Notes under the pieces: generated by a model
Told to the model about the DNA's origin: nothing
Database searches by the model: none
What the model saw: the letters and a program-made list of their open reading frames with translations, nothing else
Translations under genes and position numbers: made by a program
From: Bacteroidales bacterium UBA4788
GTDB taxonomy: Bacteria > Bacteroidota > Bacteroidia > Bacteroidales > VadinHA17
Assembly: GCA_002402965.1 (NCBI GenBank)
Contig: DHGW01000092.1
Span: 37,382 to 101,381, forward strand
Direction: 5' to 3'
Length of the DNA: 64,000 nt
Shown: positions 40,549-51,500 of the stretch, piece by piece
Position numbering within the stretch: the first letter of the stretch is position 1
Layout of the letters: each line of letters starts with the position of its first letter

Positions 40549-40740
40549 ATGGAAACTAAAGACATTATCATTTATTCTGCAGTTATTGCGCTTGTAGGTT
40601 ACTCTCTTTATCGCAAATATGTAAAGAAACAGGGTGAAGGCAGCCCTAAAAAGTCAACCGGAATTTTTACACCCAGGGGTAACCTCAGGGATCAGCCTGA
40701 TGATTACGAGCCCTATGGCGGGAAGAAGAACGGAGAATAA
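40549..40740 (+). CDS. small single-TM protein, unknown function
   Basis: 63 aa with TM IIIYSAVIALVGYSLY followed by a charged tail. Its stop abuts the stop of the convergent ABC exporter with no gap. No homology recognised. Confidence 0.35.
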   Translation: METKDIIIYSAVIALVGYSLYRKYVKKQGEGSPKKSTGIFTPRGNLRDQPDDYEPYGGKKNGE

Positions 40741-42927
40741 TCAACTGCCCAGTTCCAGCTGGTCTCTGATGAGACTGTAGTAGATCCCCTTAAGAGAGGT
40801 GAGTTCGGCGTGGGTACCTGATTCGGTCACTTTCCCGCCTTCCAGTACCACTATCCTGTCAGCATGACGCACCGTGCTAAGCCTGTGCGCAACAATTACC
40901 ACTGTCCTGCCAGCCAGGAATCCTGCAAGTTTTTCCACAACAAGTCTTTCGCTTGAGGCATCGAGGGAGCTGGTGGCTTCATCGAGCAGCACCAGCGCGG
41001 GTTGCTTGTAAACCACTCTGGCAATCAGTATTCGCTGTCTCTGTCCCTGGCTCAGACCGTGTCCTCCCTGTCCGATACGGGTCTGAATTCCTGATGGCAG
41101 CGTATCGAGCAGAGGTTTCAGACAGGCTGTCTCTGCGGCCGTGGCTACTCTTCCCATGTCGGGATTATCTTCCCCGGGTGCAATATTCCCCAGGATTGTA
41201 TCGGGGAAGATATAACCCTCCTGCATCACGGTGCCGGTATTCCTTCTCAATGAGGAAATACTGATATCATCCAGTCTCAGGCCTCCCATCTCCACCGAGC
41301 CTTCAGCAGGATGATAGAAGCCCATCAGGATCTTCAGCAAGGTTGTCTTTCCCGATCCGCTCTCTCCCACCACGGCGGTGATTCTGCCGGCAGGTATACT
41401 CAGGTTAAGGTTTCGCAGCACCCATGGTGACCCCGGACCCTCATACCTGAAAGAAAGATTCCTGATTTCAATGTCAGCGCGCGCCGGCAAGGGAGCTCCG
41501 GCATCGGGTCCGCCAGACTCCTCCGGATCCATGGCATGCACTTCGGACAGGCGCTCCAGGCTGATCCGCGCATCCTGTGTCGCCCTCATGAAACTGACAA
41601 TCTGGGATACCGGACCGTTGAGCTGCCCGGTTATGAACTGCACCGCCAGCATCATGCCAAGGGTCATAGAACCGTTTATAACCAGCGTGGCTGAGATGAC
41701 AGTGATGATTATGTTAACTGACTCGTGAATCAGGGTTCCTCCTGCCGTCTGGAACTGAAGTATCCTGAGCCCTCTGACCCGGGTGGCATAGATCTCCTTC
41801 TGCAGCATCTCCCATTCCCTCCTGTTGGTAGCTTCGTTTCCCGCCAGCTTGATCTCCTGCATGCCGTTCACGATGTTTATCATTCTGTTCCCGGCTTCGG
41901 ACATCTGCATGAACCGGATGTTGTCAAGTCGCTCACGTGCAGGCATGAAGAGTGTAACATACAATATGTAAAATGTCGTCCCGGACAGAAACACCATCAG
42001 GACCGGGATGCTGTAGATGCCAAGCACCACCCCGAAAACTATGAAATTGAATAGCGAAAAGAGGATGGCAAGACTCGACGAGGTAAGGTAACTCTCTATC
42101 CTGCTGTTGTCATCAATCCTCTGTAATATGTCGCCGTTCAGCTTCGTATCGAAGTAGGCTATTGGTAATCCCATCAGCCTTGCAAGGAAATCGGAAACGA
42201 TCCGGATATTCAGCCTGGATCCCACATGCAGCAGAATCCAACCCCTGCTGAATTCAACTGTCAGACGGCCGGCAATGAGAGCCAGCTGTCCAGCCAGGAT
42301 CAGGTATATTAACCTTACATCACTGTTGGCAATACCCCTGTCAATGATTGCCTGTGTCATGAAGGGGAAGAGGAGCTGGATGGCGCTTGACAGTATCAGA
42401 CCAGCGATAAGAAGCACTATCTTCTTTCTGTAAGGTCTAAGGTAGGGTGCCAGGAACTCAAATCCTCCCCTGGAAGGCGGATCATCCTTAAGTTCCGCAA
42501 ATGACGGGCCCGGTTCAACAAGCAGAGCCATCCCCGCCGGTTCACCACCTGTCTCTCCTGATAGCCATCCCTGCTTGAACTCTTCATGGCTCATCCTGAG
42601 ACTGCCGATGGCCGGGTCACTAACCCATACTGCCCTTTCGTTCACCCTGTTTACAACGATGAAGTGGTTCTGCCGCCAGTGCACTATACATGGAAGCGGA
42701 GCACCCTCTATCAGCCTGCTGAACGGAATCCTGACTCCTGCCGCCCTGAAACCAATACTCTCTGCAGCTGACTTTAATCCCAGCATGGAGACTCCCTCAC
42801 GTGTTATCCATGACCTCTTTCTGATGGTCTCCAGGGAGAGACGCTTACCATGACTGCGTGCTACCATGCTCAGGCATGCCGGTCCGCAATCCATTGCATC
42901 ATATTGCCTCACAAAAGGGTAGTTCAT
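40741..42927 (-). CDS. peptidase-C39-domain ABC transporter (double-glycine leader peptide processing/export, ComA/LagD-like)
   Basis: 728 aa. The N-terminal C39 domain has the catalytic Cys in QYDAMDCGPACLSM, His in HWRQNHFIVV and Asp in VSDPA. It is followed by a 6-TM domain and an NBD with GESGSGKTT, LSQGQRQR and LVLLDEATSSLD. Confidence 0.92.
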   Translation of the reverse strand: MNYPFVRQYDAMDCGPACLSMVARSHGKRLSLETIRKRSWITREGVSMLGLKSAAESIGFRAAGVRIPFSRLIEGAPLPCIVHWRQNHFIVVNRVNERAVWVSDPAIGSLRMSHEEFKQGWLSGETGGEPAGMALLVEPGPSFAELKDDPPSRGGFEFLAPYLRPYRKKIVLLIAGLILSSAIQLLFPFMTQAIIDRGIANSDVRLIYLILAGQLALIAGRLTVEFSRGWILLHVGSRLNIRIVSDFLARLMGLPIAYFDTKLNGDILQRIDDNSRIESYLTSSSLAILFSLFNFIVFGVVLGIYSIPVLMVFLSGTTFYILYVTLFMPARERLDNIRFMQMSEAGNRMINIVNGMQEIKLAGNEATNRREWEMLQKEIYATRVRGLRILQFQTAGGTLIHESVNIIITVISATLVINGSMTLGMMLAVQFITGQLNGPVSQIVSFMRATQDARISLERLSEVHAMDPEESGGPDAGAPLPARADIEIRNLSFRYEGPGSPWVLRNLNLSIPAGRITAVVGESGSGKTTLLKILMGFYHPAEGSVEMGGLRLDDISISSLRRNTGTVMQEGYIFPDTILGNIAPGEDNPDMGRVATAAETACLKPLLDTLPSGIQTRIGQGGHGLSQGQRQRILIARVVYKQPALVLLDEATSSLDASSERLVVEKLAGFLAGRTVVIVAHRLSTVRHADRIVVLEGGKVTESGTHAELTSLKGIYYSLIRDQLELGS

Positions 42928-43043
42928 TGAACAGGCATGATTGGGAGTTTTACAGCATAAATATATCCATTATTTACCCACTTCGGGTGCAGCTACTGAA
43001 AATGTGCCGGGTAGCATTTTTCAGAAATCGATTGCGGAAATTG

Positions 43044-43051
43044 TATATTTG
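43044..43051 (+). promoter_or_regulatory. candidate -7 promoter box TATATTTG (TAnnTTTG) upstream of the sigma-factor gene
   Basis: Exact match to the Bacteroidota -7 consensus, 18 nt upstream of the TTG start at 43069. No well-spaced -33 TTG. Confidence 0.35.
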
Positions 43052-43068
43052 CCAATTAAACCGCTTGT

Positions 43069-43635
43069 TTGGGATTATTCAGAAAGTATTCGGACACTGA
43101 CATCATAGATGGAATCAGGAAACAGGACAACAGGATTCTGAACTGGCTCTATGATTCCTGTTTTGAGATGATCCGTGATCACCTCAGAAAAAACAGCGGG
43201 TCGGATGATGACGTGCATGAAGTCCTCCAGGAGACTGTGGTGATATTGTACAAACAGGTTACCGGTGATGGGTTCAGTCTCACAACCGATCTGAAGGGAT
43301 ATGTCTACGGTGTGGCGCGCAATGTCTGGAATGCCCAATTGAGATACCGTTCGCGTCTGGTGGCTCTGGAATCCGATCCGGCAGATCATACGGCTGCGGA
43401 GGAGATGAACGATGCTATTCTTGAGAGGATTGTTGCCCGCTCCTTCGCTCTCCTCGGGGAAGACTGCCAGATGGTGCTAAACCTCTACGGCGAAGGTTCA
43501 TCCTATGAAGAGATAGCCCGAAGAATGGGATTCAGGAATGAGACCTACGCAAGAAGGAAAAAGTACCTCTGCAAGGAGGCTTTGATGGAAATCATCAAGA
43601 CTGATCCGGAATATCAGGATCTGGGTCCCTTATAG
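43069..43635 (+). CDS. sigma-70 family RNA polymerase sigma factor (ECF-like, regions 2 and 4 only)
   Basis: 188 aa. Region 2-like VHEVLQETVVILYKQV...YVYGVARNVWN and region 4 HTH CQMVLNLYGEGSSYEEIARRMGFRNETYARRKKYLCKEAL. There is no in-frame ATG near the N-terminus, so the TTG start at 43069 is assumed. Confidence 0.8.
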   Translation: MGLFRKYSDTDIIDGIRKQDNRILNWLYDSCFEMIRDHLRKNSGSDDDVHEVLQETVVILYKQVTGDGFSLTTDLKGYVYGVARNVWNAQLRYRSRLVALESDPADHTAAEEMNDAILERIVARSFALLGEDCQMVLNLYGEGSSYEEIARRMGFRNETYARRKKYLCKEALMEIIKTDPEYQDLGPL

Positions 43636-46600
43636 ACCAATCCCATAATAAGTGTTGCCACCAGCAGGAAGGCGAGCAGTCCTATGTACAGTTTCACCCT
43701 GTTAAACCAAAGTGGCGTGTCATCTCCGTATATCACCAGAGCCGACCAGTAGTATGGATGCGACCTGCCCTGGTAGGCAGTTCGGAGGTATTTCAACCGT
43801 GCGTTGCGCAGTGCGGAACTCTTTGTCTGGCCGCTTCTCATGTTCTTGTAAAAGGAGTGTATCACCTCTGATGCGGAGATGTCATCTACCGCCCACATCG
43901 ACATCACGGCCGAACGGCTTCCGGCATAGAGAAAGCCCCGTGCCAGGCTCAGTATTCCCTCTCCGCTCACAAGCATACCAGACCCGGTGTTGCAGGAGCT
44001 GAGCACAACCATCATTGCCTGAAGCGGGAGGCTGTAGACCTCGTAGGTATTGAGCATACCATCGTTGCTGCCGCCGCCGCCACCCGTAAAGAGCATCCTG
44101 GAGAAGGCAGGCCGGCTGTCGTCTACAAGTGTATGCATTGCCAGGTGAAGTATCTTGAAGTTCCCTGCTTCCCGCTTGAAGGCCTCTTCGCTTGCCCCTA
44201 CACCGATGTAGGCCTTCCCTCCGCACTGGTTGACTGCATCTTCGGCCTCCAGGATGGCATATGGCAGGTCACGGATCTCTCCCCTCAATGCAGGCCAGTC
44301 AATCAGCAGCGAATCATCAATCTGCACCCCTTCATAACTGGGTGCAAAGGCAACTAGCCTGTTGTTCAGACTCCTGCTCCTCTGAATGGTCTCCGACGAG
44401 AGAGTCACACTGTAGATATAAGAGAAACGGTATTTCTTAAGGGCAAAAGGAGCATCACGGTATAAAAGCCCGGGACTCCGGAACTCCTCCGTCACAAGGG
44501 CCTCGAACGGCAGGTATGAAAGGATGTTGTCAGGTGAGATCACTATCTTGTCACCGATGAGGTAAGGCTCAGCCGGCTCAATCAGAATCCGGTAAAGGCT
44601 GAGCGCCAGATCCATGTATTCATTGAATGGAGCACGTGAGCCACTTGTCGCCGGCGCAGTTGACAGCATGCTGCGGAATCGTTTCAGTGATGAGAAAAAG
44701 CTTGAATCGATGTCGCGGGTGATCACTTCACTCCTCCTGTGGTTGGCAACAAATATATACAGCCTTTCATCCGTCAGGACATAGCTTAAGAGGTTTGCCC
44801 TGCGGCCGATAACGCTGCTGACCTTGTTCAGAGGCGTCACCTCACTCCTGAATTTAAGGTTATAATAGGCCGGGTAATTATTCTCAAAGATTCGCACAAG
44901 AGAGTCACGCGATCTGAGCAGCCGGAAAGTCACTCCCTCCCAGGTGGCCAGTCTCTGAGTGTCAGGCACCGCTTTCAGCTTCTCCTTAAGCATAAGATCC
45001 TTGTAGAATCCAATCTCTCTTCTGATCTCTCCGTCAAGTTCTGTCAGCTCCCCGGGCAGGGAGAAGCGTGCGGCATTGAGCTCCCTCATGGAAGTAAGGA
45101 ACCCTGCCACCTTGCTCCTTTCTGAGAATTCAAAAAGGCCGGCAAGCGACTCGCGGTCATGGTCCGCCTCATATAGTTCTGCATAATTGTCAATGATGCC
45201 CGTATATATATCCCTGGAGTAGGAGCTGAAGCTTGTCCTGCTCTCCTCCTCGCTCATCTCCAGCCTGCGGCGGTCATACAGCGAGGTGATCCTGCTTCCG
45301 GCTGCAACAGCCTGCCTTAGGTAGTCCATATTTCTTTCTGACCGTGCAAGAGCGTTCAGGGCATCGTATCTCAATTCAAGAAGACGCAGGTCTTCTTCAG
45401 AGATGCCGTTGATCTCACCGTCATCACGGTTGCCCGGTTTGGCCGGCTCAGATGAAATGGCCATTCCCTCAGTGATAGCCAGCACCTCCTCATACCTGCC
45501 CGCATCTGTCAAAGCCTGGGCATACTTGACGGTTACAAATTTTCTCATCGAGACATCCCACGGATTTCTGCGCACATAACCGAGACACTCATCGTAAAGC
45601 GCAAGCGACCGGTCACTGTCACCAAGACTGTTGGTAATAAAGTCAGCGACCGAAACCAGCATAATGAAATATTCCCTGCTCTCCGGCCCGTAAGCGCTTC
45701 TCACCCTTTCCAGTCCTTCTTCCAGGACTTTTTCTCCTTCCTGTATCCTGCCGGCGTGAGCCAGAAAAGCTGAATAATTGATATGAAGCAGAAATTTGTC
45801 ATGAGTATTCTGCCCGTCCCTGATGGCCAGTCCCATCCTGAACTGCTCCTCTGCCTCCAACGGCTGATCAAGCCTGCGGTGCACCTGGGCCATGGTATTG
45901 TGCATCAGTATCCTTGAATCAACACTGGCGGCAGGATCCCTGTCATAGATTCTGAGTGCCTCCCTGCAGTAAACAAGTGATTTGTTGTACTCCAGCGTCC
46001 GATAGAGGCTCAGCCCTATCACGTGGTAGAGGTCAGCCTGTATCTTCGACGGAATCTCATCAGGGTATAGCCTTGAAATTTTCAGTCCTGACTCTGCCAG
46101 CTCAATTGCCTGGCCGGCGTCATTCAATTCAAGGCATATGCTGGCAAGATTGAGGTAGTTGGTTGCCAGCCCCGACGAGTCACTTCCTGAAACGGCCCTT
46201 TTGGCTTCCAGACCCCTGACTCCAAGCCCGTAGGCATGCGTATAATTCCCCAGCCTGTGGAGTGAGACAGCCATATTGCTGAGACCGTTGCCATACCTCC
46301 TGTCATAAAGAGAAAGCCTCTCCCGGAAGCTGGTGGAGACGCTGAAACAATCATAGGCACGATCGAACCTGTTCGACTGGTAATGCTGAACACCCACAAA
46401 ATAATAAGCATCCGAAAGCAGAAGGGTATCCATGATAAGTGTACCGTCAATGATTATTTCGATCTCCCCTGCCATCCTTTCCGCACCGGATGAATTTGCC
46501 CGGCGTTCAAGAAGAACGGCAAGTGAATCACTCAGCTCCCTGAGCCTCAATTCCCCCGAATCTTTCATTTCATTGCCCGCAGTGGCTTCTGAGCCAGATC

Positions 46601-46679
46601 CCCGGGCCAAACCAGGAGTTCCGCTGATAACCGCAAAAAACAGGTATGAAACAATGAGTATGTCTGCCCTCAGACTCAT
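43614..46679 (-). CDS. TPR-CHAT protein (caspase-fold CHAT peptidase domain), N-terminal signal/anchor and C-terminal TM
   Basis: 1021 aa. N-terminal hydrophobic ILIVSYLFFAVISGTPGLARG, then about 600 aa of TPR-like repeats. The C-terminal CHAT domain has His in FKILHLAMHTLVDD and Cys in MVVLSSCNTGSG. Terminal TM LYIGLLAFLLVATLIMGLVY. Confidence 0.85.
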   Translation of the reverse strand: MSLRADILIVSYLFFAVISGTPGLARGSGSEATAGNEMKDSGELRLRELSDSLAVLLERRANSSGAERMAGEIEIIIDGTLIMDTLLLSDAYYFVGVQHYQSNRFDRAYDCFSVSTSFRERLSLYDRRYGNGLSNMAVSLHRLGNYTHAYGLGVRGLEAKRAVSGSDSSGLATNYLNLASICLELNDAGQAIELAESGLKISRLYPDEIPSKIQADLYHVIGLSLYRTLEYNKSLVYCREALRIYDRDPAASVDSRILMHNTMAQVHRRLDQPLEAEEQFRMGLAIRDGQNTHDKFLLHINYSAFLAHAGRIQEGEKVLEEGLERVRSAYGPESREYFIMLVSVADFITNSLGDSDRSLALYDECLGYVRRNPWDVSMRKFVTVKYAQALTDAGRYEEVLAITEGMAISSEPAKPGNRDDGEINGISEEDLRLLELRYDALNALARSERNMDYLRQAVAAGSRITSLYDRRRLEMSEEESRTSFSSYSRDIYTGIIDNYAELYEADHDRESLAGLFEFSERSKVAGFLTSMRELNAARFSLPGELTELDGEIRREIGFYKDLMLKEKLKAVPDTQRLATWEGVTFRLLRSRDSLVRIFENNYPAYYNLKFRSEVTPLNKVSSVIGRRANLLSYVLTDERLYIFVANHRRSEVITRDIDSSFFSSLKRFRSMLSTAPATSGSRAPFNEYMDLALSLYRILIEPAEPYLIGDKIVISPDNILSYLPFEALVTEEFRSPGLLYRDAPFALKKYRFSYIYSVTLSSETIQRSRSLNNRLVAFAPSYEGVQIDDSLLIDWPALRGEIRDLPYAILEAEDAVNQCGGKAYIGVGASEEAFKREAGNFKILHLAMHTLVDDSRPAFSRMLFTGGGGGSNDGMLNTYEVYSLPLQAMMVVLSSCNTGSGMLVSGEGILSLARGFLYAGSRSAVMSMWAVDDISASEVIHSFYKNMRSGQTKSSALRNARLKYLRTAYQGRSHPYYWSALVIYGDDTPLWFNRVKLYIGLLAFLLVATLIMGLVYKGPRS

Positions 46680-46811
46680 CTGTATGGTTCTTCTTTCTTC
46701 CGCCGGTAAAAGTATAAAACAATCCGTTACAGTAACAGCAACTTTCCTGTCGTTATACAGCCCTGTTCTTCAGTATGTTGCATTTTTTTTGAAAAAAAGT
46801 CGATTTTTTCG

Positions 46812-46836
46812 TGTCACAAAAGGGCACTTTGTGACA
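46812..46836. promoter_or_regulatory. perfect 9-bp inverted repeat TGTCACAAA-N7-TTTGTGACA (candidate operator) upstream of the GG-peptide gene
   Basis: Read directly from the sequence: 46812-46820 TGTCACAAA and 46828-46836 TTTGTGACA. It lies 53 nt upstream of the peptide ATG in the divergent CHAT/peptide intergenic region. A T8-G-A7 palindrome sits at 46783-46798. Confidence 0.4.
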
Positions 46837-46888
46837 TGTACGGTATAAATGACAATTAAACCCTGATTCATTAATAAAACCCAAAAAA

Positions 46889-47026
46889 ATGAAAACCCTG
46901 AAAATTGAAAACTTCTCTGATTTTGTTCTTTCAAACGAGGAAATGATTAATGTACGCGGCGGAAACGGCGGCAAAAACGATTCGGTAACTGATCCAACCA
47001 GGCCTCCGGTGGTAATAGAGATCTGA
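46889..47026 (+). CDS. double-glycine (GG) leader peptide precursor, 45 aa
   Basis: Not in the ORF track because it is under 60 aa. Manual translation gives MKTLKIENFSDFVLSNEEMINVRGG/NGGKNDSVTDPTRPPVVIEI. The leader matches the Bacteroidota bacteriocin-type signal pattern MKxLKxxxxxxxLSxEEMxxxxGG. A C39 exporter lies 4 kb away. Confidence 0.75.
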   Translation: MKTLKIENFSDFVLSNEEMINVRGGNGGKNDSVTDPTRPPVVIEI

Positions 47027-47214
47027 ATTGAATGACAGAGCCGGTTTTTCCGGCCAGCATATATAGCATAACGGGGGCAGATCTGCGTTAAGCAGAGATA
47101 CCCTGTCATCCGGCAGCGTGCGCGCAAGCCGGTGCAGTGCCCGGAACGGCATGCAGATGATTGTCAGCAACTATTTGGTTGATAATTTATAAGTGTGAAA
47201 TAATAATATACAAG

Positions 47215-47961
47215 ATGAAAACAAGGAATGTTAACAATGCCATTGAGGATTGGCTCGGCGGTCAGACAGACAAGGCCGGGGAGGAATGGCTCATCAGAGA
47301 GATGAAAAAAGACCCGGCGCTGGCAAGGGAAATCACTCTCAGGAGAAAAACAGATGAAATCCTGGCTGAAAGGCAGGTGATTGATCTAAGGAATATGCTC
47401 ACGGCCATAGAGAGGAAAAAACGCTCTGCAGGCACACTCCGCAGAACTATGGTGAAGAGTGCGAAGTATGCAGCTGCAGTTGCGCTTGTTGCACTCATCT
47501 CATCAGCTCTATACCTGGGACTGAGGCCGGGTGCATCACCTGATGAACTGTACTCTTCCTATTATTCCCGGTACGAATCACCTGGTGCCGTGAGGTCCGC
47601 CGTCAGTCCGGGCAACACATTGATGGAGAATGCCATCGCCTCCTACTCTGCAAAAGAGTATGAAAAGGCTATCATGTACCTTGAACAGGTGATAAACACC
47701 GGACAGGAAGGAATGGAATCGGTCTTCATGCACGGTATGGCCAACATGGAGGTGAAGAATTATCCGGTGGCGAGCAGATCATTCACCCGCGTCATCGAAC
47801 ACAATGACAACCTGTACCTCGAAGATGCCGAATGGTACCTGGGCCTGTGCTACATGATGACCGGCAACAAGGAAAAGGCAACGAAACAGTTTGCTGCAAT
47901 AGCATCCTCCGGCAGCAGGTACAGCAAACAGGCTGTCAGACTGGCACGAAGGATTAAATAA
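47215..47961 (+). CDS. single-pass membrane protein: N-terminal cytoplasmic anti-sigma-like helix region, TM, periplasmic TPR domain
   Basis: 248 aa from the ATG at 47215. IEDWLGGQTDKAGEEWLIREMKKDPALAREI resembles the N-terminus of Bacteroidota anti-sigma factors. TM AAAVALVALISSALYLGL. C-terminal TPR-like repeats include YEKAIMYLEQVI and AEWYLGLCYMMTGNKEKA. Confidence 0.65.
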   Translation: MKTRNVNNAIEDWLGGQTDKAGEEWLIREMKKDPALAREITLRRKTDEILAERQVIDLRNMLTAIERKKRSAGTLRRTMVKSAKYAAAVALVALISSALYLGLRPGASPDELYSSYYSRYESPGAVRSAVSPGNTLMENAIASYSAKEYEKAIMYLEQVINTGQEGMESVFMHGMANMEVKNYPVASRSFTRVIEHNDNLYLEDAEWYLGLCYMMTGNKEKATKQFAAIASSGSRYSKQAVRLARRIK

Positions 47962-47987: not shown

Positions 47988-48803
47988 ATGTTCGAGATTC
48001 TACGCAGTGCCTTCAAAGAGACGGGTATGACAGCAGCGACAGGCCATGAAAAACTGAACAAGATGATCAACAGACCAAATATACTTGCAGGCGTTTCTCA
48101 TGAGGTAAGAACTCAGATGAACTCAATCGTCGCCTTTTCATACCTGATGAACAATGAGAGGTTCAGTGACAACGAAAAGCGTGAGTTCTCAGAGCAGATA
48201 ATTTCATCATGCGAACAGCTGATCGGATTGTTTGAAAATTTCTTTGACACCGCCTCCCTTGAATCAGGGTCAACAAGGGAAAATCTCCGTGAGACAGACA
48301 TTACAAGACTTTTCGAGTCCCTTACCTCAGAATTCAGGGTTTTCATGAGGAAAAAGGGACATGATAATGTCGTTCTCATCCAGGAAGACAACCTCCCGGA
48401 CAAGCTGATGCTGAAGCTAGACGTGGCGAGGATAACAAGAATTATCAGCAATCTGTTCAGGGACGCACTCGACAGTACTTCTTCAGGGTTTATAAAAGTC
48501 GGGTGTACCTACAACGATGAGACAATAACATTTTACGTAAAAGATTCTGGCCAGGGTTTCCCAAGAAGTAGCAACCTGCTGCTTTCCGACAATCCTGAGA
48601 TCCAACATTCCGAAAGTCAGGATACCTATTCCGCTATGAATTTAATCCTGGCCAGAAATCTTATTCTCGCAATGGAGGGCAATATCAGGGTTGAGCCCAA
48701 CGATGCCGGAGGAACATCTGTATTCGTCTCTTTACCTGCCAGGGAGTGCTCTGGCTTGAAAATACTCACCGGTACCTCTTCAGAGAGTAAAATCGCAATC
48801 TGA
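47988..48803 (+). CDS. minimal soluble histidine-kinase core (HisKA + HATPase_c), no sensor domain, no TM
   Basis: 271 aa. H-box ILAGVSHEVRTQMNSIVAF about 35 aa from the N-terminus. N-box-like IISNLFRDALDS, G1 KDSGQGF and G2-like GGTSVFVSLP. Confidence 0.75.
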   Translation: MFEILRSAFKETGMTAATGHEKLNKMINRPNILAGVSHEVRTQMNSIVAFSYLMNNERFSDNEKREFSEQIISSCEQLIGLFENFFDTASLESGSTRENLRETDITRLFESLTSEFRVFMRKKGHDNVVLIQEDNLPDKLMLKLDVARITRIISNLFRDALDSTSSGFIKVGCTYNDETITFYVKDSGQGFPRSSNLLLSDNPEIQHSESQDTYSAMNLILARNLILAMEGNIRVEPNDAGGTSVFVSLPARECSGLKILTGTSSESKIAI

Positions 48804-48917: not shown

Positions 48918-50873
48918 TTACTTGTGTATCCCTTCTGACAGGACGGTGATCTCAGTGCGCCTGTTGAGTCTTTTGCCGGCAGGGGTGATATTGTCAGCCA
49001 CTGGCGAGGTTTCGCCGTAGCCGTGTGAGAAGATACGGTCTTTGCCAATGCCTCTCTTTATCAGATACTCCCTTACCGAATTTGCTCTTCTTTCAGAAAG
49101 CCGCTGGTTATGTTCCTCACTGCCGTCTGAATCGGTATGACCGCCTATTTCAATTACCACTGAAGGATTGATCTGCATGAATTCCAGCAGTTGCTCAAGT
49201 TCAGGCATTGATGATTCAAGCAACTCCCAGGAGTCGGTGTCATAGAAGACGTTGTACATCCTCATGAACTCCCCTACTCTTACCCTGTTCAGTGGAATGG
49301 TCTTCATGAAAGGTTCCGAAGAATCGTAACCCTCTGCAAAATCAAAGTTTTCCGAGAATATCATGTAGCCGCTGGCGGTAACATTCAGTCCGTAGCTGCT
49401 GCCCTGGGGCAGGCAGACGAAAAACTCTCCCCCGCTGTCAGTGACAGAACTGATGACATCCACTCTGTTTGTGAGATCACTCAGCTCATATTTTGCAGTG
49501 ATCGGCTGCCCGGATGCCTTATCGATTACAGTGCCCTTGAAGTACAGGACAGGCTCCGGCTGAACGACCTCCGGCAGGTCAAGATAAAAGATATCCTTTC
49601 CCTTTTCCTTATCCCGGACCGAAGAGAAGTAAGCTCGTTTGCCGGATGACTCAATGACGAGTCCTGTTTCATCCGCAGGCGTATTCACAGGTGGACCCAG
49701 GTTCTCAGGGGTGCTCCATGTGGAATCACGGTTCATTGTTGTGACGTAGATATCATGCCCGCCAAATGATTCCCTGCCATTGGAGGAGAAATAGAGTGTT
49801 TTCCCGTTGAAATAGATGAATGGCGAAAACTCATCGCCAGCTGTATTGACAGCCTTTCCCGGGTTAACCGGTTTGCGCCATTTTCCGTCGTTGCTGCGTG
49901 TGGAATACCAGATATCCATCCCTCCCAGGCCCCCGGGCCTGTTACTCACAAAGAAAAGCATCCTTCCGTTCGGGCTGATGGAGGGTTGAGATTCCCAGTA
50001 TGTTGAATTCAAAGGTGTGCCGAGGTTTATCCCCGGTGACCACCGGTTGCCGTCATATGATGAGAAATAAATGTCACATCTTCCCTGCCCGTCACTCCGG
50101 TCACATGCCGTGAAATACATGTATCTTCCATCGGATGAGATGGACTGTGCTCCTTCGTTTCCGGCTGTGTTAAGGGGTGCTCCGGCATTGCGGGCTGTTC
50201 TCCAGTACCCGTTGACGGCCCAGTTGCTGATATAGAAATCCTCCTGACGGTCGCGGCCGTAATCCCTTCCATAACCGGTGGCTCTCTTTACTTCGCGCGT
50301 AAAAATCAGCTGTTGGCCGTCACCTGTTACCGAAGGCCAGTATTCGTCAAGAAGGGTGTTTACCGAATCGCCTGCACTGACCGGGTCAGCATCAAAGAGG
50401 GAACGCGGAAAAGAAAGTGCAAAACGGCAGCTGACGATCATCTTTTCCGCCTCGCTTCGCAGCCTCGCCGTGGCTCCCTGCTGGCTCAGGTAGGCCTCAA
50501 GATGCTTCATTGCTTCGAAATATCTTCCCATCCTCATCTCAGCCTTTCCAAGACTGAAAAGAGCTGGCGGAAAGTAGAGTGAATCGATTTCCACTGCTGC
50601 ACGGTAATGGGTCACCGACTTCTCCCAGTCGCCAGTGTCAGAATAGAGCTGGCCAAGCAGTATATGTGCCTCGTAAAACCTGCTGTCTTCCCTTACTGCC
50701 AGCCTTAAGTTGCTCTCCGCCCTGTCGTAATAGAGCAACTCGTAATCCCTCTTTCCCTGATCATAGTATTTAAGTGCCCTGTTGGAACGGGTGTGCAGTG
50801 ACTGGCCCGTGACTACGCACTGGCTCAGAATGATCATCAAAAGCAGGACTGTAATGTTTGTTCTTACTCTCAT
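48918..50873 (-). CDS. OmpA-family protein with N-terminal TPR and TolB-like (PD40/WD40-like) beta-propeller repeats
   Basis: 651 aa. TPR-like N-terminus, repeated PD40-like segments (SPDGRxLYF type: ISSDGRYMYFT, ISPNGRMLFFVS, FNGKTLYFSS) and a C-terminal OmpA domain (IGGHTDSDGSEEHNQRLSERRANSV). Confidence 0.85.
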   Translation of the reverse strand: MRVRTNITVLLLMIILSQCVVTGQSLHTRSNRALKYYDQGKRDYELLYYDRAESNLRLAVREDSRFYEAHILLGQLYSDTGDWEKSVTHYRAAVEIDSLYFPPALFSLGKAEMRMGRYFEAMKHLEAYLSQQGATARLRSEAEKMIVSCRFALSFPRSLFDADPVSAGDSVNTLLDEYWPSVTGDGQQLIFTREVKRATGYGRDYGRDRQEDFYISNWAVNGYWRTARNAGAPLNTAGNEGAQSISSDGRYMYFTACDRSDGQGRCDIYFSSYDGNRWSPGINLGTPLNSTYWESQPSISPNGRMLFFVSNRPGGLGGMDIWYSTRSNDGKWRKPVNPGKAVNTAGDEFSPFIYFNGKTLYFSSNGRESFGGHDIYVTTMNRDSTWSTPENLGPPVNTPADETGLVIESSGKRAYFSSVRDKEKGKDIFYLDLPEVVQPEPVLYFKGTVIDKASGQPITAKYELSDLTNRVDVISSVTDSGGEFFVCLPQGSSYGLNVTASGYMIFSENFDFAEGYDSSEPFMKTIPLNRVRVGEFMRMYNVFYDTDSWELLESSMPELEQLLEFMQINPSVVIEIGGHTDSDGSEEHNQRLSERRANSVREYLIKRGIGKDRIFSHGYGETSPVADNITPAGKRLNRRTEITVLSEGIHK

Positions 50874-51500
50874 TCAGGGAATATGCATGAATTTATGTGC
50901 CTGAAGGGAAACTCTCCATCCGGGGTTTTTCTTTACGTATTCTGTTATTTCCGCAATTATCTCACTGTAACGGCTCCACTCAGGTTGCAGTAGAAGCTGG
51001 CAGCCTGGCTTCACCTTCTCTTTATATATCTCGGCATCCTCAAAATCAGTGCCACCCTGTATTACCACCTTTAGCTCATCTGCCAGGGGCAATATCCCCG
51101 GGAGCGGAGGAGAGCCCCTTTTAGGCGACAGGGTGATCCAGTCCCATGATCCCGTAAGGGGGAATGCACCGGAAGTCTCAAGGTATGTCTTGATTCCCTT
51201 TGATCTAAGCAGTTCGCATAACGGACCCATATCCCACATCAGAGGTTCACCGCCGGTGACCACAACCGAATCGGCCCCTGCCGCAAGGACGTTCGACGCT
51301 ATGACATCTATCCCCACCATAGGGTGCAATCCGGCATCCCATGAATATTTGGTATCACACCAGCTGCAGCATATGTCGCATCCGCCAACCCTGATGAAAT
51401 AAGCGGCCTTGCCAGTGTTGCACCCCTCGCCCTGGATGGAGTAGAATTCCTCCACAAGTGGCAGCCTGTGCCCGTCAGTAACCGGACTACTTCTTTTCAT
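50874..51500 (-). CDS. queE: 7-carboxy-7-deazaguanine synthase (radical SAM)
   Basis: 208 aa. FYSIQGEGCNTGKAAYFIRVGGCDICCSWCDTKYSW is the QueE-type cluster and substrate motif. Confidence 0.88.
   Translation of the reverse strand: MKRSSPVTDGHRLPLVEEFYSIQGEGCNTGKAAYFIRVGGCDICCSWCDTKYSWDAGLHPMVGIDVIASNVLAAGADSVVVTGGEPLMWDMGPLCELLRSKGIKTYLETSGAFPLTGSWDWITLSPKRGSPPLPGILPLADELKVVIQGGTDFEDAEIYKEKVKPGCQLLLQPEWSRYSEIIAEITEYVKKNPGWRVSLQAHKFMHIP

Follow-up and report, generated by a model that had tools for sequence, protein, structure and literature searches.

The streptococcal competence circuit consists of ComC, ComAB, ComDE, and the alternative sigma factor ComX. Competence and bacteriocin systems use HPK10-type membrane kinases, and in the three-component systems ComCDE and PlnABCD a polytopic membrane histidine kinase receptor and a LytTR response regulator are found beside the peptide. 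In E. coli, OMP C-terminal peptides activate DegS via PDZ, and DegS then cleaves RseA and frees σE. To our knowledge, peptide-based signalling in Bacteroidota is essentially uncharacterised, and DdvA is the only characterised ECF-sigma system under the control of a TPR-CHAT protease. Our literature search on peptide-based signalling in Bacteroidota returned nothing, and searches on CHAT with ECF sigma, GG peptides with anti-sigma, TIGR04149, CHAT with C39, and Bacteroidota PCAT precursors returned no description of the module reported here; CHAT is absent from the main text of the ECF reclassification paper.

In Myxococcus xanthus, the periplasmic TPR-CHAT domain of the anti-sigma factor DdvA controls the ECF sigma factor DdvS, where a signal is proposed to induce proteolysis by CHAT, after which intramembrane proteolysis would set the sigma factor free (PMC11506125). 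DdvA carries a zinc-binding anti-sigma domain, a TM segment, and TPR-CHAT in one protein, has no associated peptide, peptidase-containing ABC exporter (PCAT), or kinase, and regulates CBASS/CRISPR genes (PMC11506125). In the type III-E CRISPR craspase, the TPR-CHAT protein Csx29 cleaves Csx30, a protein associated with the ECF sigma RpoE (PMC10028731). Heterocyst patterning in Anabaena, a developmental process that involves peptide signalling, also combines a C39-ABC protein (the PCAT HetC) with a CHAT protein (HetF), along with the PatS/HetN peptides (PMC10986499, PMC9457339, PMC4133259). Unlike the genes described below, those of the cyanobacterium are scattered, HetF acts on PatU3 and is a cytoplasmic protein, there is no ECF sigma, and the heterocyst peptides have no sequence relationship to our peptide. 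PatS is not known to bear a canonical GG leader.

Composition and conservation of the module

The window, i.e., the whole 64-kb stretch of DNA analysed, carries a module of uncultured Bacteroidales composed of a C39-ABC exporter, an ECF sigma factor, a TPR-CHAT protease, a peptide, a TM-TPR protein, and a soluble histidine kinase (Table 1). The window sequence is identical to a contig in SRR5324157.

Table 1. Features of the module and of the peptide gene in the window
Feature	Position	Strand	Basis or remark
Peptidase-containing ABC exporter (PCAT), 728 aa	40741..42927	-	Peptidase_C39, ABC_membrane, ABC_tran
ECF-type sigma factor, 188 aa	43069..43635	+	TIGR02937 sigma70-ECF, 45.8 bits (cut-off 42.9)
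TPR-CHAT protease, 1021 aa, predicted periplasmic	43614..46679	-	CHAT 6.3e-52, TPR_12; divergent from peptide gene
Bipartite promoter-like element TGTCACAAA-N15-ATGTA	46812..46840	+	49 nt upstream of peptide ATG; conserved
5'-UTR element AACCCTGA(A/T)T	46859..46866	+	Between promoter element and ATG; conserved in most loci
Peptide ORF, 45 codons, MKTLKIENFSDFVLSNEEMINVRGGNGGKNDSVTDPTRPPVVIEI	46889..47026	+	ATG 46889, TGA 47024-47026
Leader peptide, residues 1-25, MKTLKIENFSDFVLSNEEMINVRGG	46889..46963	+	Alignment, PCAT consensus, dN/dS 0.15, sub-threshold TIGR04149
Predicted mature peptide NGGKNDSVTDPTRPPVVIEI, 20 aa	46964..47023	+	Alignments, dN/dS
Stem-loop GCCGG-TTTTT-CCGGC	47040..47054	+	14 nt past peptide stop codon
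TM-TPR protein, 248 aa	47215..47961	+	Weak Pfam TPR matches; single TM
Soluble histidine-kinase core, 271 aa	47988..48803	+	HisKA + HATPase_c (Pfam); starts 26 nt past TM-TPR gene

The module shares a GG leader of about 25 residues, with L(-12), E(-8), and hydrophobic residues at -7 and -4, with ComC/ComAB, class II bacteriocins, and LahA/LahT, and it resembles GG-leader/PCAT systems in its adjacent C39-ABC exporter and in a small core predicted to be unmodified (PMC6363468, PMC7018657). Unlike those systems, it belongs to a Gram-negative Bacteroidales host, its core is acidic, Pro-rich, and 15–20 aa long with a conserved PP-Φ-x-I end (Φ, hydrophobic), and it contains no immunity gene, membrane peptide-sensing kinase, or LytTR response regulator. 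The logic of the streptococcal competence circuit, a GG-leader peptide with a PCAT, a kinase, and an alternative sigma factor, is the same, and the predicted dedicated non-housekeeping promoter of the peptide gene may point to autoinduction. However, the kinase of the module is soluble with no TM sensor or linked response regulator, sensing is proposed to occur via periplasmic TPRs, a CHAT protease is included, and the sigma factor is of the ECF type, with its gene under a housekeeping-type promoter.

As in DdvA-DdvS, an ECF sigma gene is coupled to a membrane-anchored, predicted periplasmic TPR-CHAT protein with a His-Cys dyad (PMC11506125). The TPR-CHAT protein of the module differs from DdvA in having a signal peptide and a C-terminal anchor and neither an anti-sigma domain in the same polypeptide nor any cytoplasmic domain; TM-TPR would supply the cytoplasmic part. 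The proposed activation of a site-1 protease by a hydrophobic C-terminal periplasmic peptide, with cleavage of a single-pass anti-sigma and release of an ECF sigma, would parallel DegS-RseA-σE. However, the ligand here would be dedicated, gene-encoded, exported, and bound by TPRs, the protease would be caspase-like, and the sigma factor is the only homologous protein. Coupling of a TPR-CHAT protease to an ECF-type sigma is likewise seen in craspase (PMC10028731), which is cytoplasmic and RNA-activated, whereas the module has no cas genes, is predicted to be periplasmic, and offers a peptide as the candidate ligand.

The gene order is identical in 80 species-level genomes, with sigma identity down to 52%, and the module is also kept in a more distant locus (L094), whose sigma and TM-TPR proteins are 43% and 28% identical to those of the window and whose left flank differs, carrying Nramp and 5-oxoprolinase genes. 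The exporter gene lies about 4 kb from the peptide gene in every scorable locus, this one included, and the peptide and CHAT genes diverge from one intergenic region in every locus. The preliminary description had placed the peptide first in a plus-strand trio, and the order peptide, TM-TPR, kinase is indeed kept, including in distant loci; the kinase gene follows TM-TPR in nearly all loci reaching that far and was undetected in L078 and L082. All loci belong to one lineage, and conservation extends to an unrelated neighbour, a PorE-like OmpA gene, which the distant locus L096 retains as well, so synteny alone over-states the functional linkage.

The sigma factor showed weak matches to the Pfam sigma regions 2 and 4 and a match to NF041236, the type III-E CRISPR-associated RpoE-like sigma, that was below the cut-off (E=2.4e-4). 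Relatives of this protein occur in 165 species-representative genomes. Searching with a profile of the sigma alignment yielded 1780 matches, and the 120 matches listed all belong to one family, with no out-group context among them. The sigma gene is convergent with the CHAT gene, overlapping it by 22 bp.

The TPR-CHAT protein has two hydrophobic segments, an N-terminal signal or TM segment (residues 1–25) and a C-terminal TM anchor (residues 992–1019), beyond which the window protein has only two residues (R-S). Among 83 CHAT ORFs scanned, the His motif LHLAMHT (from residue 844) is present in 81 and the Cys motif VLSSCNT (from residue 892) in 77; the C-terminal TM is likewise conserved. We therefore predict a periplasmic protease with an intact His-Cys dyad. 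TM-TPR consists of a predicted cytoplasmic helical domain (residues 1–84), a TM segment (85–105), and a periplasmic TPR domain, so it is predicted to share the periplasmic compartment with TPR-CHAT. Its start, MKT, is conserved, and its family is narrow (143 matches). The N-terminus forms four helices in a low-confidence AF2 model (pLDDT about 52). A recognisable anti-sigma domain was sought there, and neither Pfam at E<=10 nor a profile search of PDB sequences gave a known anti-sigma match. TM-TPR is a candidate peptide receptor and/or anti-sigma factor. The kinase has no hydrophobic or TM segment and no sensor domain, and no response-regulator gene was found in the module in any locus.

The exporter matches Peptidase_C39 at 3.8e-35 in addition to the two ABC domains, and TIGR03796 and TIGR01193 span nearly its whole length below their cut-offs. 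The catalytic-Cys motif Q..DCG is present in all 71 orthologues, and the His motif in 52 of the 71 under a strict regular expression. These domains and motifs agree with the earlier suggestion that the peptide is a likely substrate of this protein, which is predicted to remove the leader and export the peptide. An HlyD (type-I-secretion adaptor) gene beside the exporter is found in none of the 48 loci of the window's clade and in all 18 loci of the sister clade (clade B), where it lies immediately downstream of the exporter; the retained adaptor implies secretion out of the cell in that clade.

The peptide gene, its leader, and its predicted mature product

A 535-bp gap separates the start of the minus-strand TPR-CHAT gene (46679) from the ATG of the TM-TPR gene (47215), and the peptide ORF lies within it. 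The bounds and translation of the ORF given in the preliminary description were exact, and so was its AT-rich intergenic setting, the GC content being 0.37 around the ORF versus 0.51 window-wide. It had also called the ORF hidden and missed by the ORF track; however, the ORF is in the mechanical ORF list at a length threshold of at least 30 aa, and public gene callers already carry it as a hypothetical protein (it is also called in locus L001). A search for similar small ORFs beside sigma and CHAT genes in other genomes, and a comparison of synonymous with non-synonymous change, had both been proposed. Public data contain 74 homologues, nearly all of 44–45 aa, and the ORF is present in all 74 non-redundant related loci having both flanking genes. 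Pooled dN/dS is 0.21 in the annotated frame, as opposed to 1.42 and 1.82 when the two alternative frames are read, the codon-position entropies are 0.45, 0.41, and 1.05 at positions 1, 2, and 3, and the amino-acid motifs are retained at about 50% identity. Judged by these comparisons, the ORF is confirmed as a genuine translated gene for a 45-aa precursor. Purifying selection, as estimated from the alignments, is strong and is strongest over the last ten residues: dN/dS is 0.15 for the leader codons, 0.33 for the linker (residues 26–35; pN 0.49), and 0.065 for the last ten codons, where synonymous sites are near-saturated. The gene is single copy per locus, at a fixed chromosomal position in the related genomes examined. 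The family comprises 95 clusters among 1.84 billion proteins, and it attained the threshold of no curated model, including the curated bacteriocin and RiPP models; by these searches, it is a small, sharply defined family that current curated models miss.

The ComA/PCAT recognition consensus is L(-12)-x3-E(-8)-L(-7)...GG (PMC6363468). In a 66-sequence alignment, L14, N16, E18, M19, R23, G24, and G25 of the leader are invariant, and L14, E18, M19, G24, and G25 occupy positions -12, -8, -7, -2, and -1; V22 (-4) is hydrophobic. The leader thus follows the rule L(-12)-x3-E(-8)-[L/M](-7)...GG, Leu being found at -7 in some of the fetched loci. The double-glycine leader recognised in the preliminary description is accordingly supported, and the leader end, the recognition consensus, and the nearby C39 exporter place the peptide, as far as sequence can tell, in the GG-leader class. 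Cleavage after a second GG (G27-G28) had been offered as an alternative. G24-G25 is invariant in all 66 aligned homologues and across loci, whereas residue 28 varies among G, A, E, V, T, R, and P. This leaves G25 as the one supported cleavage site, and the mature product is predicted to be the 20-mer. TIGR01847, the model suggested earlier for checking the leader, gave no match to the window peptide at E<=1, and a relative in L080 scored 13.9 bits against a cut-off of 15.7. Among curated models the best match was to TIGR04149 (GG_sam_targ_CFB), a family of RiPP precursors that shares the Bacteroidota-type leader MK.L...LS.EEM..V.GG and that aligned with residues 1–27 only and below its cut-off (18.8 bits, E=1.1e-3; cut-off 25 bits). 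Unlike those precursors, the peptide has an unrelated core and no adjacent rSAM/SPASM maturase.

The predicted mature peptide, with a monoisotopic mass of 2107.09 Da if unmodified, consists of the variable linker and a conserved C-terminal motif, P-T-[RK]-P-P-[VI]-[IV]-I-E-[ILF]. Across the family the core ends in PP-[VI]-x-I(-E-[ILF]), i.e., PP-Φ-x-I, extended to -E-Φ in the window's clade; conservation of R/K38 is limited to clade A. The 68 unique cores are 15–20 aa long, have a net charge of -2 to +1, and contain about 19% Pro. Cys occurs in only three of them, and the homologue alignments show no core position at which Cys, Ser, or Thr is conserved. Where the mature peptide is most conserved it is invariant, with no diversification into 'pherotypes', which is atypical for a cell-cell signal.

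Promoter-like element and hairpin of the peptide gene

The canonical Bacteroidetes promoter box is TAnnTTTG, and the sigma gene has a housekeeping-type -7 box of this form, TATATTTG, at 43044–43051; a conserved element upstream of the exporter gene resembles it. The bipartite element upstream of the peptide gene differs from this box and is preceded by a T-rich tract. Its stricter form, TGTCACAA-N13-GACATGT, occurs once in the window, where none is expected by chance, and once per related locus, at a constant position and with a fixed spacing. No second copy of the element was found in the window with two mismatches allowed or in the 20-kb loci. A TGTCA...TGACA palindrome was considered as an operator and is less likely, since distant loci lose the palindrome and retain both boxes of TGTCACAAA-N15-ATGTA. 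From this conserved element we predict that the peptide gene has its own dedicated, non-housekeeping promoter. Many ECF sigmas are autoregulated; the upstream region of the sigma gene lacks the peptide promoter motif, which argues against such autoregulation here.

The octamer of the 5'-UTR element reappears in peptide codons 2–5 (46894–46901). A hairpin is present after the stop codon in all clades, with a differing stem sequence, compensatory changes in four of the five pairs, and a median MFE of -9.35 kcal/mol over 74 loci. A canonical intrinsic terminator was rejected, a T-run following the hairpin in only 7 of the 74 loci; the hairpin may terminate transcription partially or stabilise the 3' end. 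Its conservation suggests that the peptide gene is transcribed largely on its own. Rfam gave no match in the region 46600–47300.

Proposed role of the peptide and alternative explanations

Taken together, the data suggest a peptide-signalling circuit rather than an antibiotic, and we lean, with modest confidence, towards the peptide being an exported signalling ligand for an envelope sensor/ECF-sigma module. The neighbouring PCAT would cleave the precursor after G25 and move the unmodified 20-mer across the inner membrane. In the window's clade, where the HlyD adaptor gene has been lost beside the exporter, the peptide would probably remain largely periplasmic, and in the sister clade with the adaptor it would probably exit the cell. 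The conserved C-terminus (PP-Φ-x-I) would bind the periplasmic TPR domain of the TPR-CHAT protease or of TM-TPR and turn the module on, the likeliest route being that CHAT cleaves TM-TPR as an anti-sigma-like tether and/or that the partner kinase is activated. Either event would free the ECF sigma, which would transcribe the peptide's TGTCACAAA-N15-ATGTA promoter and create positive feedback; we infer the assignment of this promoter to the module's sigma. The complete pathway, in which a PCAT-exported ligand of 15–20 aa activates periplasmic TPR-CHAT, TM-TPR is cut, and the freed ECF sigma drives the peptide promoter for quorum or envelope sensing in a Gram-negative phylum, is a tentative and rather doubtful proposal. 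If it exists, it could be viewed, just as tentatively and by analogy, as a 'split DdvA' with a DegS/RseA-like mechanism and a ComC-like autoinducer.

The module supplies a candidate ligand that can be synthesised (2107.09 Da), a defined candidate for the target promoter, and a natural 'split' DdvA architecture. With few recombinant parts it opens two questions to testing: which trigger periplasmic CHAT proteases respond to, and whether Gram-negatives signal with GG-leader peptides. It also adds a small peptide family of about 95 clusters that current curated models miss.

Alternatively, the peptide may act only in the producer cell, as a substrate, pseudosubstrate, or securin-like inhibitor of TPR-CHAT or as a periplasmic cofactor of the module; we consider this unlikely, though worth keeping in view. 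The invariant C-terminus means that an intracellular or periplasmic role as cofactor or substrate fits equally well, and the divergence of the peptide and CHAT genes from one intergenic region in every locus, the intact catalytic dyad, and the lack of the HlyD adaptor needed for outer-membrane crossing in the window's clade (0/48 versus 18/18 in the sister clade) all point in this direction. However, the adaptor directly downstream of the exporter in the sister clade implies secretion, and no CHAT cleavage motif could be defined, R/K38 being conserved in clade A only. This explanation overlaps with the signalling reading, and the main difference is whether the signal is shared between cells.

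An unmodified antimicrobial of the class II bacteriocin or microcin kind, exported by the PCAT while the sigma, kinase, and TPR genes merely regulate production, appears improbable. A GG leader with a PCAT, and with HlyD in clade B, is the classical export set of bacteriocins and microcins (PMC6363468). The fast-varying linker (pN 0.49) and the leader-only, sub-threshold matches to TIGR04149, NF046113, and TIGR01847 also fit such a role. Class II bacteriocins and microcins have a cationic or amphiphilic mature peptide of about 25–60 aa and a linked immunity gene, and bacteriocin islands are usually strain-variable. The mature part here, in contrast, is short, acidic to neutral, and Pro-rich, so that no amphipathic helix is possible, its C-terminus is under very strong purifying selection, and in all related genomes examined the locus is single copy and keeps a fixed position within the core genome. 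The composition of the core, with no curated model at threshold, agrees with the preliminary description, which had found it unlike class II bacteriocins and lanthipeptide or sactipeptide precursors. In the loci compared, the module has no immunity-like gene, and no small membrane protein co-varies with it. The sole small TM ORF, orf63 (40549–40740), was considered as an immunity protein and rejected: it belongs to the DUF349 flank, stays with that flank in clade B at about 1.3 kb from the exporter, and is uncalled in L094.

A RiPP precursor whose modifying enzyme, a radical-SAM or a proline/C-terminal modifier, is encoded elsewhere in the genome is very improbable. The best curated match, TIGR04149, is indeed an 'rSAM-modified RiPP' family, and an enzyme could recognise or modify the peptide at the invariant PP and the conserved C-terminus; however, that match covers the leader only and falls short of the cut-off, and the core has no conserved Cys, Ser, or Thr position. 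Pairing with the nearby radical-SAM gene (50874–51500) was rejected, as that gene is QueE (TIGR04322, 1.3e-32; TIGR04508, 1.1e-25). QueE is the only radical-SAM gene in the 10 kb to each side, and none of the loci showed a maturase within that distance. On the evidence of QueE, the absence of any family at threshold, the Pro-rich cores of 15–20 aa, and the single fixed copy, the locus appears to be neither a RiPP nor a bacteriocin locus.

Finally, the explanation that the peptide ORF is a chance reading frame within a regulatory intergenic region, suggested by its short length, its AT-rich position between divergent promoters, and the lack of a Shine-Dalgarno sequence, has practically no probability left and is already refuted by the selection test, as the frame is intact in 74/74 loci, its codon-position entropy is frame-specific, dN/dS exceeds 1.4 only off-frame, and the amino-acid motifs survive at about 50% identity.

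A conserved small gene with a PCAT-type leader

The ORF at 46889-47026 (ATG...TGA) translates from the window as MKTLKIENFSDFVLSNEEMINVRGGNGGKNDSVTDPTRPPVVIEI, exactly reproducing the coordinates and product of the preliminary description. It lies between a minus-strand gene starting at 46679 and a plus-strand gene with a conserved ATG at 47215, and the GC content of this gap (0.37 versus 0.51 window-wide) agrees with the AT-rich setting described. When all small ORFs in the 64 kb were crudely scanned for the leader pattern, this peptide was the only one returned.

A search of 5.8 billion proteins gave 74 homologues. Nearly all have 44-45 aa, originate in uncultured Bacteroidales and carry a hypothetical-protein label from public gene callers. 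Eighty species-level loci were retrieved via the neighbouring sigma factor, and more were added by exact-protein look-up. The similar small ORFs sought beside sigma/CHAT genes in other genomes were found in 74/74 non-redundant loci with both flanking genes, with strand and place unchanged. Pooled Nei-Gojobori dN/dS for 46 ungapped peptide genes was 0.21 over the whole ORF in the annotated frame, 0.15 for the leader (codons 1-25), 0.33 for the linker (codons 26-35) and 0.065 for the last ten codons, where synonymous sites are near saturation; the same region read in frames +1 and +2 gave 1.42 and 1.82. The synonymous versus non-synonymous comparison proposed earlier thus gives a purifying, frame-specific pattern, which together with the presence of the ORF in every such locus excludes a chance ORF and identifies a selected small gene.

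L14, N16, E18, M19, R23, G24 and G25 are invariant in the peptide alignment. Relative to G25, the positions are L(-12), E(-8), M/L(-7), V(-4) and GG(-2/-1), so that the proposed double-glycine leader matches the Leu(-12)-x3-Glu(-8)-Leu(-7) consensus recognized by PCAT peptidase domains (PMC6363468). The second GG, suggested as an alternative cleavage site, is not conserved among homologues; cleavage after G25 is therefore the supported site, with a predicted 20-mer of 2107.09 Da.

The mature part consists of a rapidly varying linker and a conserved C-terminus, P-T-[RK]-P-P-[VI]-[IV]-I-E-[ILF] in the window's clade (clade A); peptides of the sister clade B end at PP-[VI]-[KRI]-I, the -E-[ILF] extension being restricted to clade A. 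The 68 distinct cores have 15-20 aa, a net charge of -2 to +1, about 19% Pro and nearly no Cys. One member, at L065:6385-6522 in a related locus (MKTLNLKKIEEFILTDEEMINVRGGNGILSSGPGQNGGDVIVIKI), lacks the near-universal PP motif and keeps a hydrophobic -IKI end; the homologous peptide P0247 resembles it, and the two may represent a divergent sub-type.

Just 95 clusters turned up when 1.84 billion representative proteins were searched with a profile, and nearly all of them matched over the full length, at 40-50 aa. The family is under threshold for every curated Pfam/NCBIfam model scanned: the sole curated match of the window peptide was TIGR04149, to the leader part (18.8 bits against a 25-bit cut-off), and TIGR01847, the model named earlier for a check, does not detect it.

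Composition and conservation of the module

Module genes, clade-B adaptor genes and flanking genes
Feature	Position	Strand
C39-peptidase ABC exporter (PCAT)	40741-42927	-
ECF-type sigma factor	43069-43635	+
TPR-CHAT protein, 1021 aa; N-terminal signal/TM segment, C-terminal TM anchor	43614-46679	-
Peptide gene	46889-47026	+
TM-TPR protein, 248 aa; predicted 84-residue cytoplasmic helical domain, one TM, periplasmic TPR domain	47215-47961	+
Kinase core (HisKA + HATPase_c), 271 aa, no TM	47988-48803	+
HlyD-family type-I-secretion adaptor, 429-437 aa	L009:2472-3761, L012:1845-3134, L094:2535-3848	-
PorE / CHU_0125-like TPR-PD40-OmpA protein	48918-50873	-
QueE (radical-SAM gene)	50874-51500	-
Conserved ORF, 58-63 aa, hydrophobic N-terminus (METKDIIIYSAVIALVGYSLY...)	40549-40740	+
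Five-repeat DUF349 protein, 736 aa	38154-40364	-

The order exporter, sigma, CHAT, peptide, TM-TPR, kinase was the same in 80/80 species-level loci, in which sigma identity to the window ranges from 85% down to 52%; the peptide thus holds the place first ascribed to it, at the head of the plus-strand trio. The ECF sigma and kinase genes travel with those of the peptide, PCAT, CHAT and TM-TPR. The distant locus L094 (peptide P0221; 43% sigma and 28% TM-TPR identity to the window) has a complete module (HlyD, ABC, sigma, CHAT, peptide, TM-TPR, kinase) and a different left flank of Nramp and 5-oxoprolinase genes, and the trio is also found in two further distant members on short contigs. The PorE-like right-hand neighbour is kept in another distant locus, L096, too, so inherited synteny contributes to the conservation pattern.

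The predicted PCAT is catalytically intact, with the C39 catalytic-Cys motif in 71/71 exporter orthologues. Given its terminal membrane segments, the bulk of the CHAT protein is predicted to be periplasmic; its predicted protease dyad is intact, the His motif occurring in 81/83 and the Cys motif in 77/83 of the CHAT ORFs scanned. TM-TPR is a predicted periplasmic receptor-like protein, and Pfam and PDB sequence searches gave no support for an anti-sigma domain in its N-terminal region. No response regulator was linked to the module in the loci examined. The convergent sigma and CHAT genes share 22 bp at their 3' ends (43614-43635). Every locus keeps the overlap, at about 28 bp in clade B, and it may permit antisense coupling of the two genes or interference between their transcription.

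The exporter gene is followed by that of the HlyD-family adaptor in 18/18 scorable clade-B loci, against 0/48 in clade A, window included. Loss of the adaptor and the -E-[ILF] extension coincide, probably as a single evolutionary event; even so, the adaptor-free exporter suggests delivery of the peptide no further than the periplasm in clade A.

Regulatory signals

Upstream of the peptide gene, a T-rich tract is followed by TGTCACAAA-N15-ATGTA (46812-46840). In its stricter form, TGTCACAA-N13-GACATGT, the element is found a single time in the window (0 expected by chance) and once per related locus, always upstream of the peptide gene at fixed spacing, and no second copy was found in the window with up to 2 mismatches allowed; the peptide promoter is thus private. 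Because distant loci retain both boxes and lose the palindromic symmetry, a bipartite alternative-sigma promoter is favoured over an operator. Its candidate assignment to the ECF sigma is based on exclusivity and adjacency.

The Bacteroidetes housekeeping -7 box is TAnnTTTG, to which TATATTTG, preceding the sigma gene at 43044-43051, is a perfect match. On the divergent exporter side of the 42928-43068 spacer, a conserved GTAAATATATCCA element resembles the same box. The two boxes thus suggest constitutive expression of both genes, not autoregulation by the sigma factor.

A stem-loop lies 3' of the peptide stop codon in all clades, with differing stem sequences and compensatory changes; as a U-tract rarely follows, it may serve as a stabilizer or terminate transcription only in part. 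Rfam gave no match in the peptide-gene region. The octamer AACCCTGA in the 5' UTR (46859-46866) is conserved in most loci, recurs in the window within codons 2-5 (46894-46901), and might act in translation initiation or as an element of the leader RNA. More GC-rich hairpins occur at 47070-47160. Just upstream of the TM-TPR start, the stretch 47169-47205 contains an imperfect inverted repeat (AACTATTTGGTTGATAATT; AACTAT...ATAGTT in relatives) followed by TATAAGTGTGAAATAATA, conserved across clade A; together they may form a separate promoter/operator for the TM-TPR/kinase pair.

A proposed signalling pathway and its alternatives

In the proposed pathway, the PCAT would cut the precursor after G25 and export an unmodified 20-mer, whose invariant C-terminus would bind a periplasmic TPR domain of the module. 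The CHAT protease, the TM-TPR/kinase pair or both would thereby be activated and so free the ECF sigma; transcription from the peptide promoter by this sigma would close a feed-forward loop. As one precedent, hydrophobic C-terminal peptides activate DegS. A second is DdvA-DdvS, which likewise combines a periplasmic TPR-CHAT domain with an ECF sigma; the DdvA domain is proposed to self-cleave, whereupon intramembrane proteolysis frees DdvS (PMC11506125).

A plausible alternative, which overlaps this signalling model, is that the peptide is a CHAT substrate or inhibitor with a purely cell-internal role. The peptide's size, charge and Pro content speak against a bacteriocin, as do the absence of an immunity gene from the module and the constant position in the core genome. 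A RiPP precursor is also disfavoured, as a maturase is absent from the loci and the core has no conserved modifiable residues.

The pairing of leader and exporter is of the textbook kind and already known. What appears new is the predicted wiring: the literature searched describes no co-conserved periplasmic TPR-CHAT protease, TM-TPR, orphan kinase and ECF sigma wired to a GG-leader peptide. The evidence for the system is purely comparative.

Two right-hand neighbours were ruled out as peptide maturases, being QueE and the PorE-like OmpA protein. Both flank every locus extending that far, which points to ancestral synteny or, alternatively, hints at a connection with outer-membrane integrity. 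On the left, the DUF349 protein gene, between pyrG and the module, is a conserved neighbour in most loci. The small ORF beside it terminates one base short of the exporter stop codon. In clade B, this ORF adjoins the DUF349 gene, and the HlyD adaptor gene separates it from the exporter; it is therefore a flank gene outside the module.
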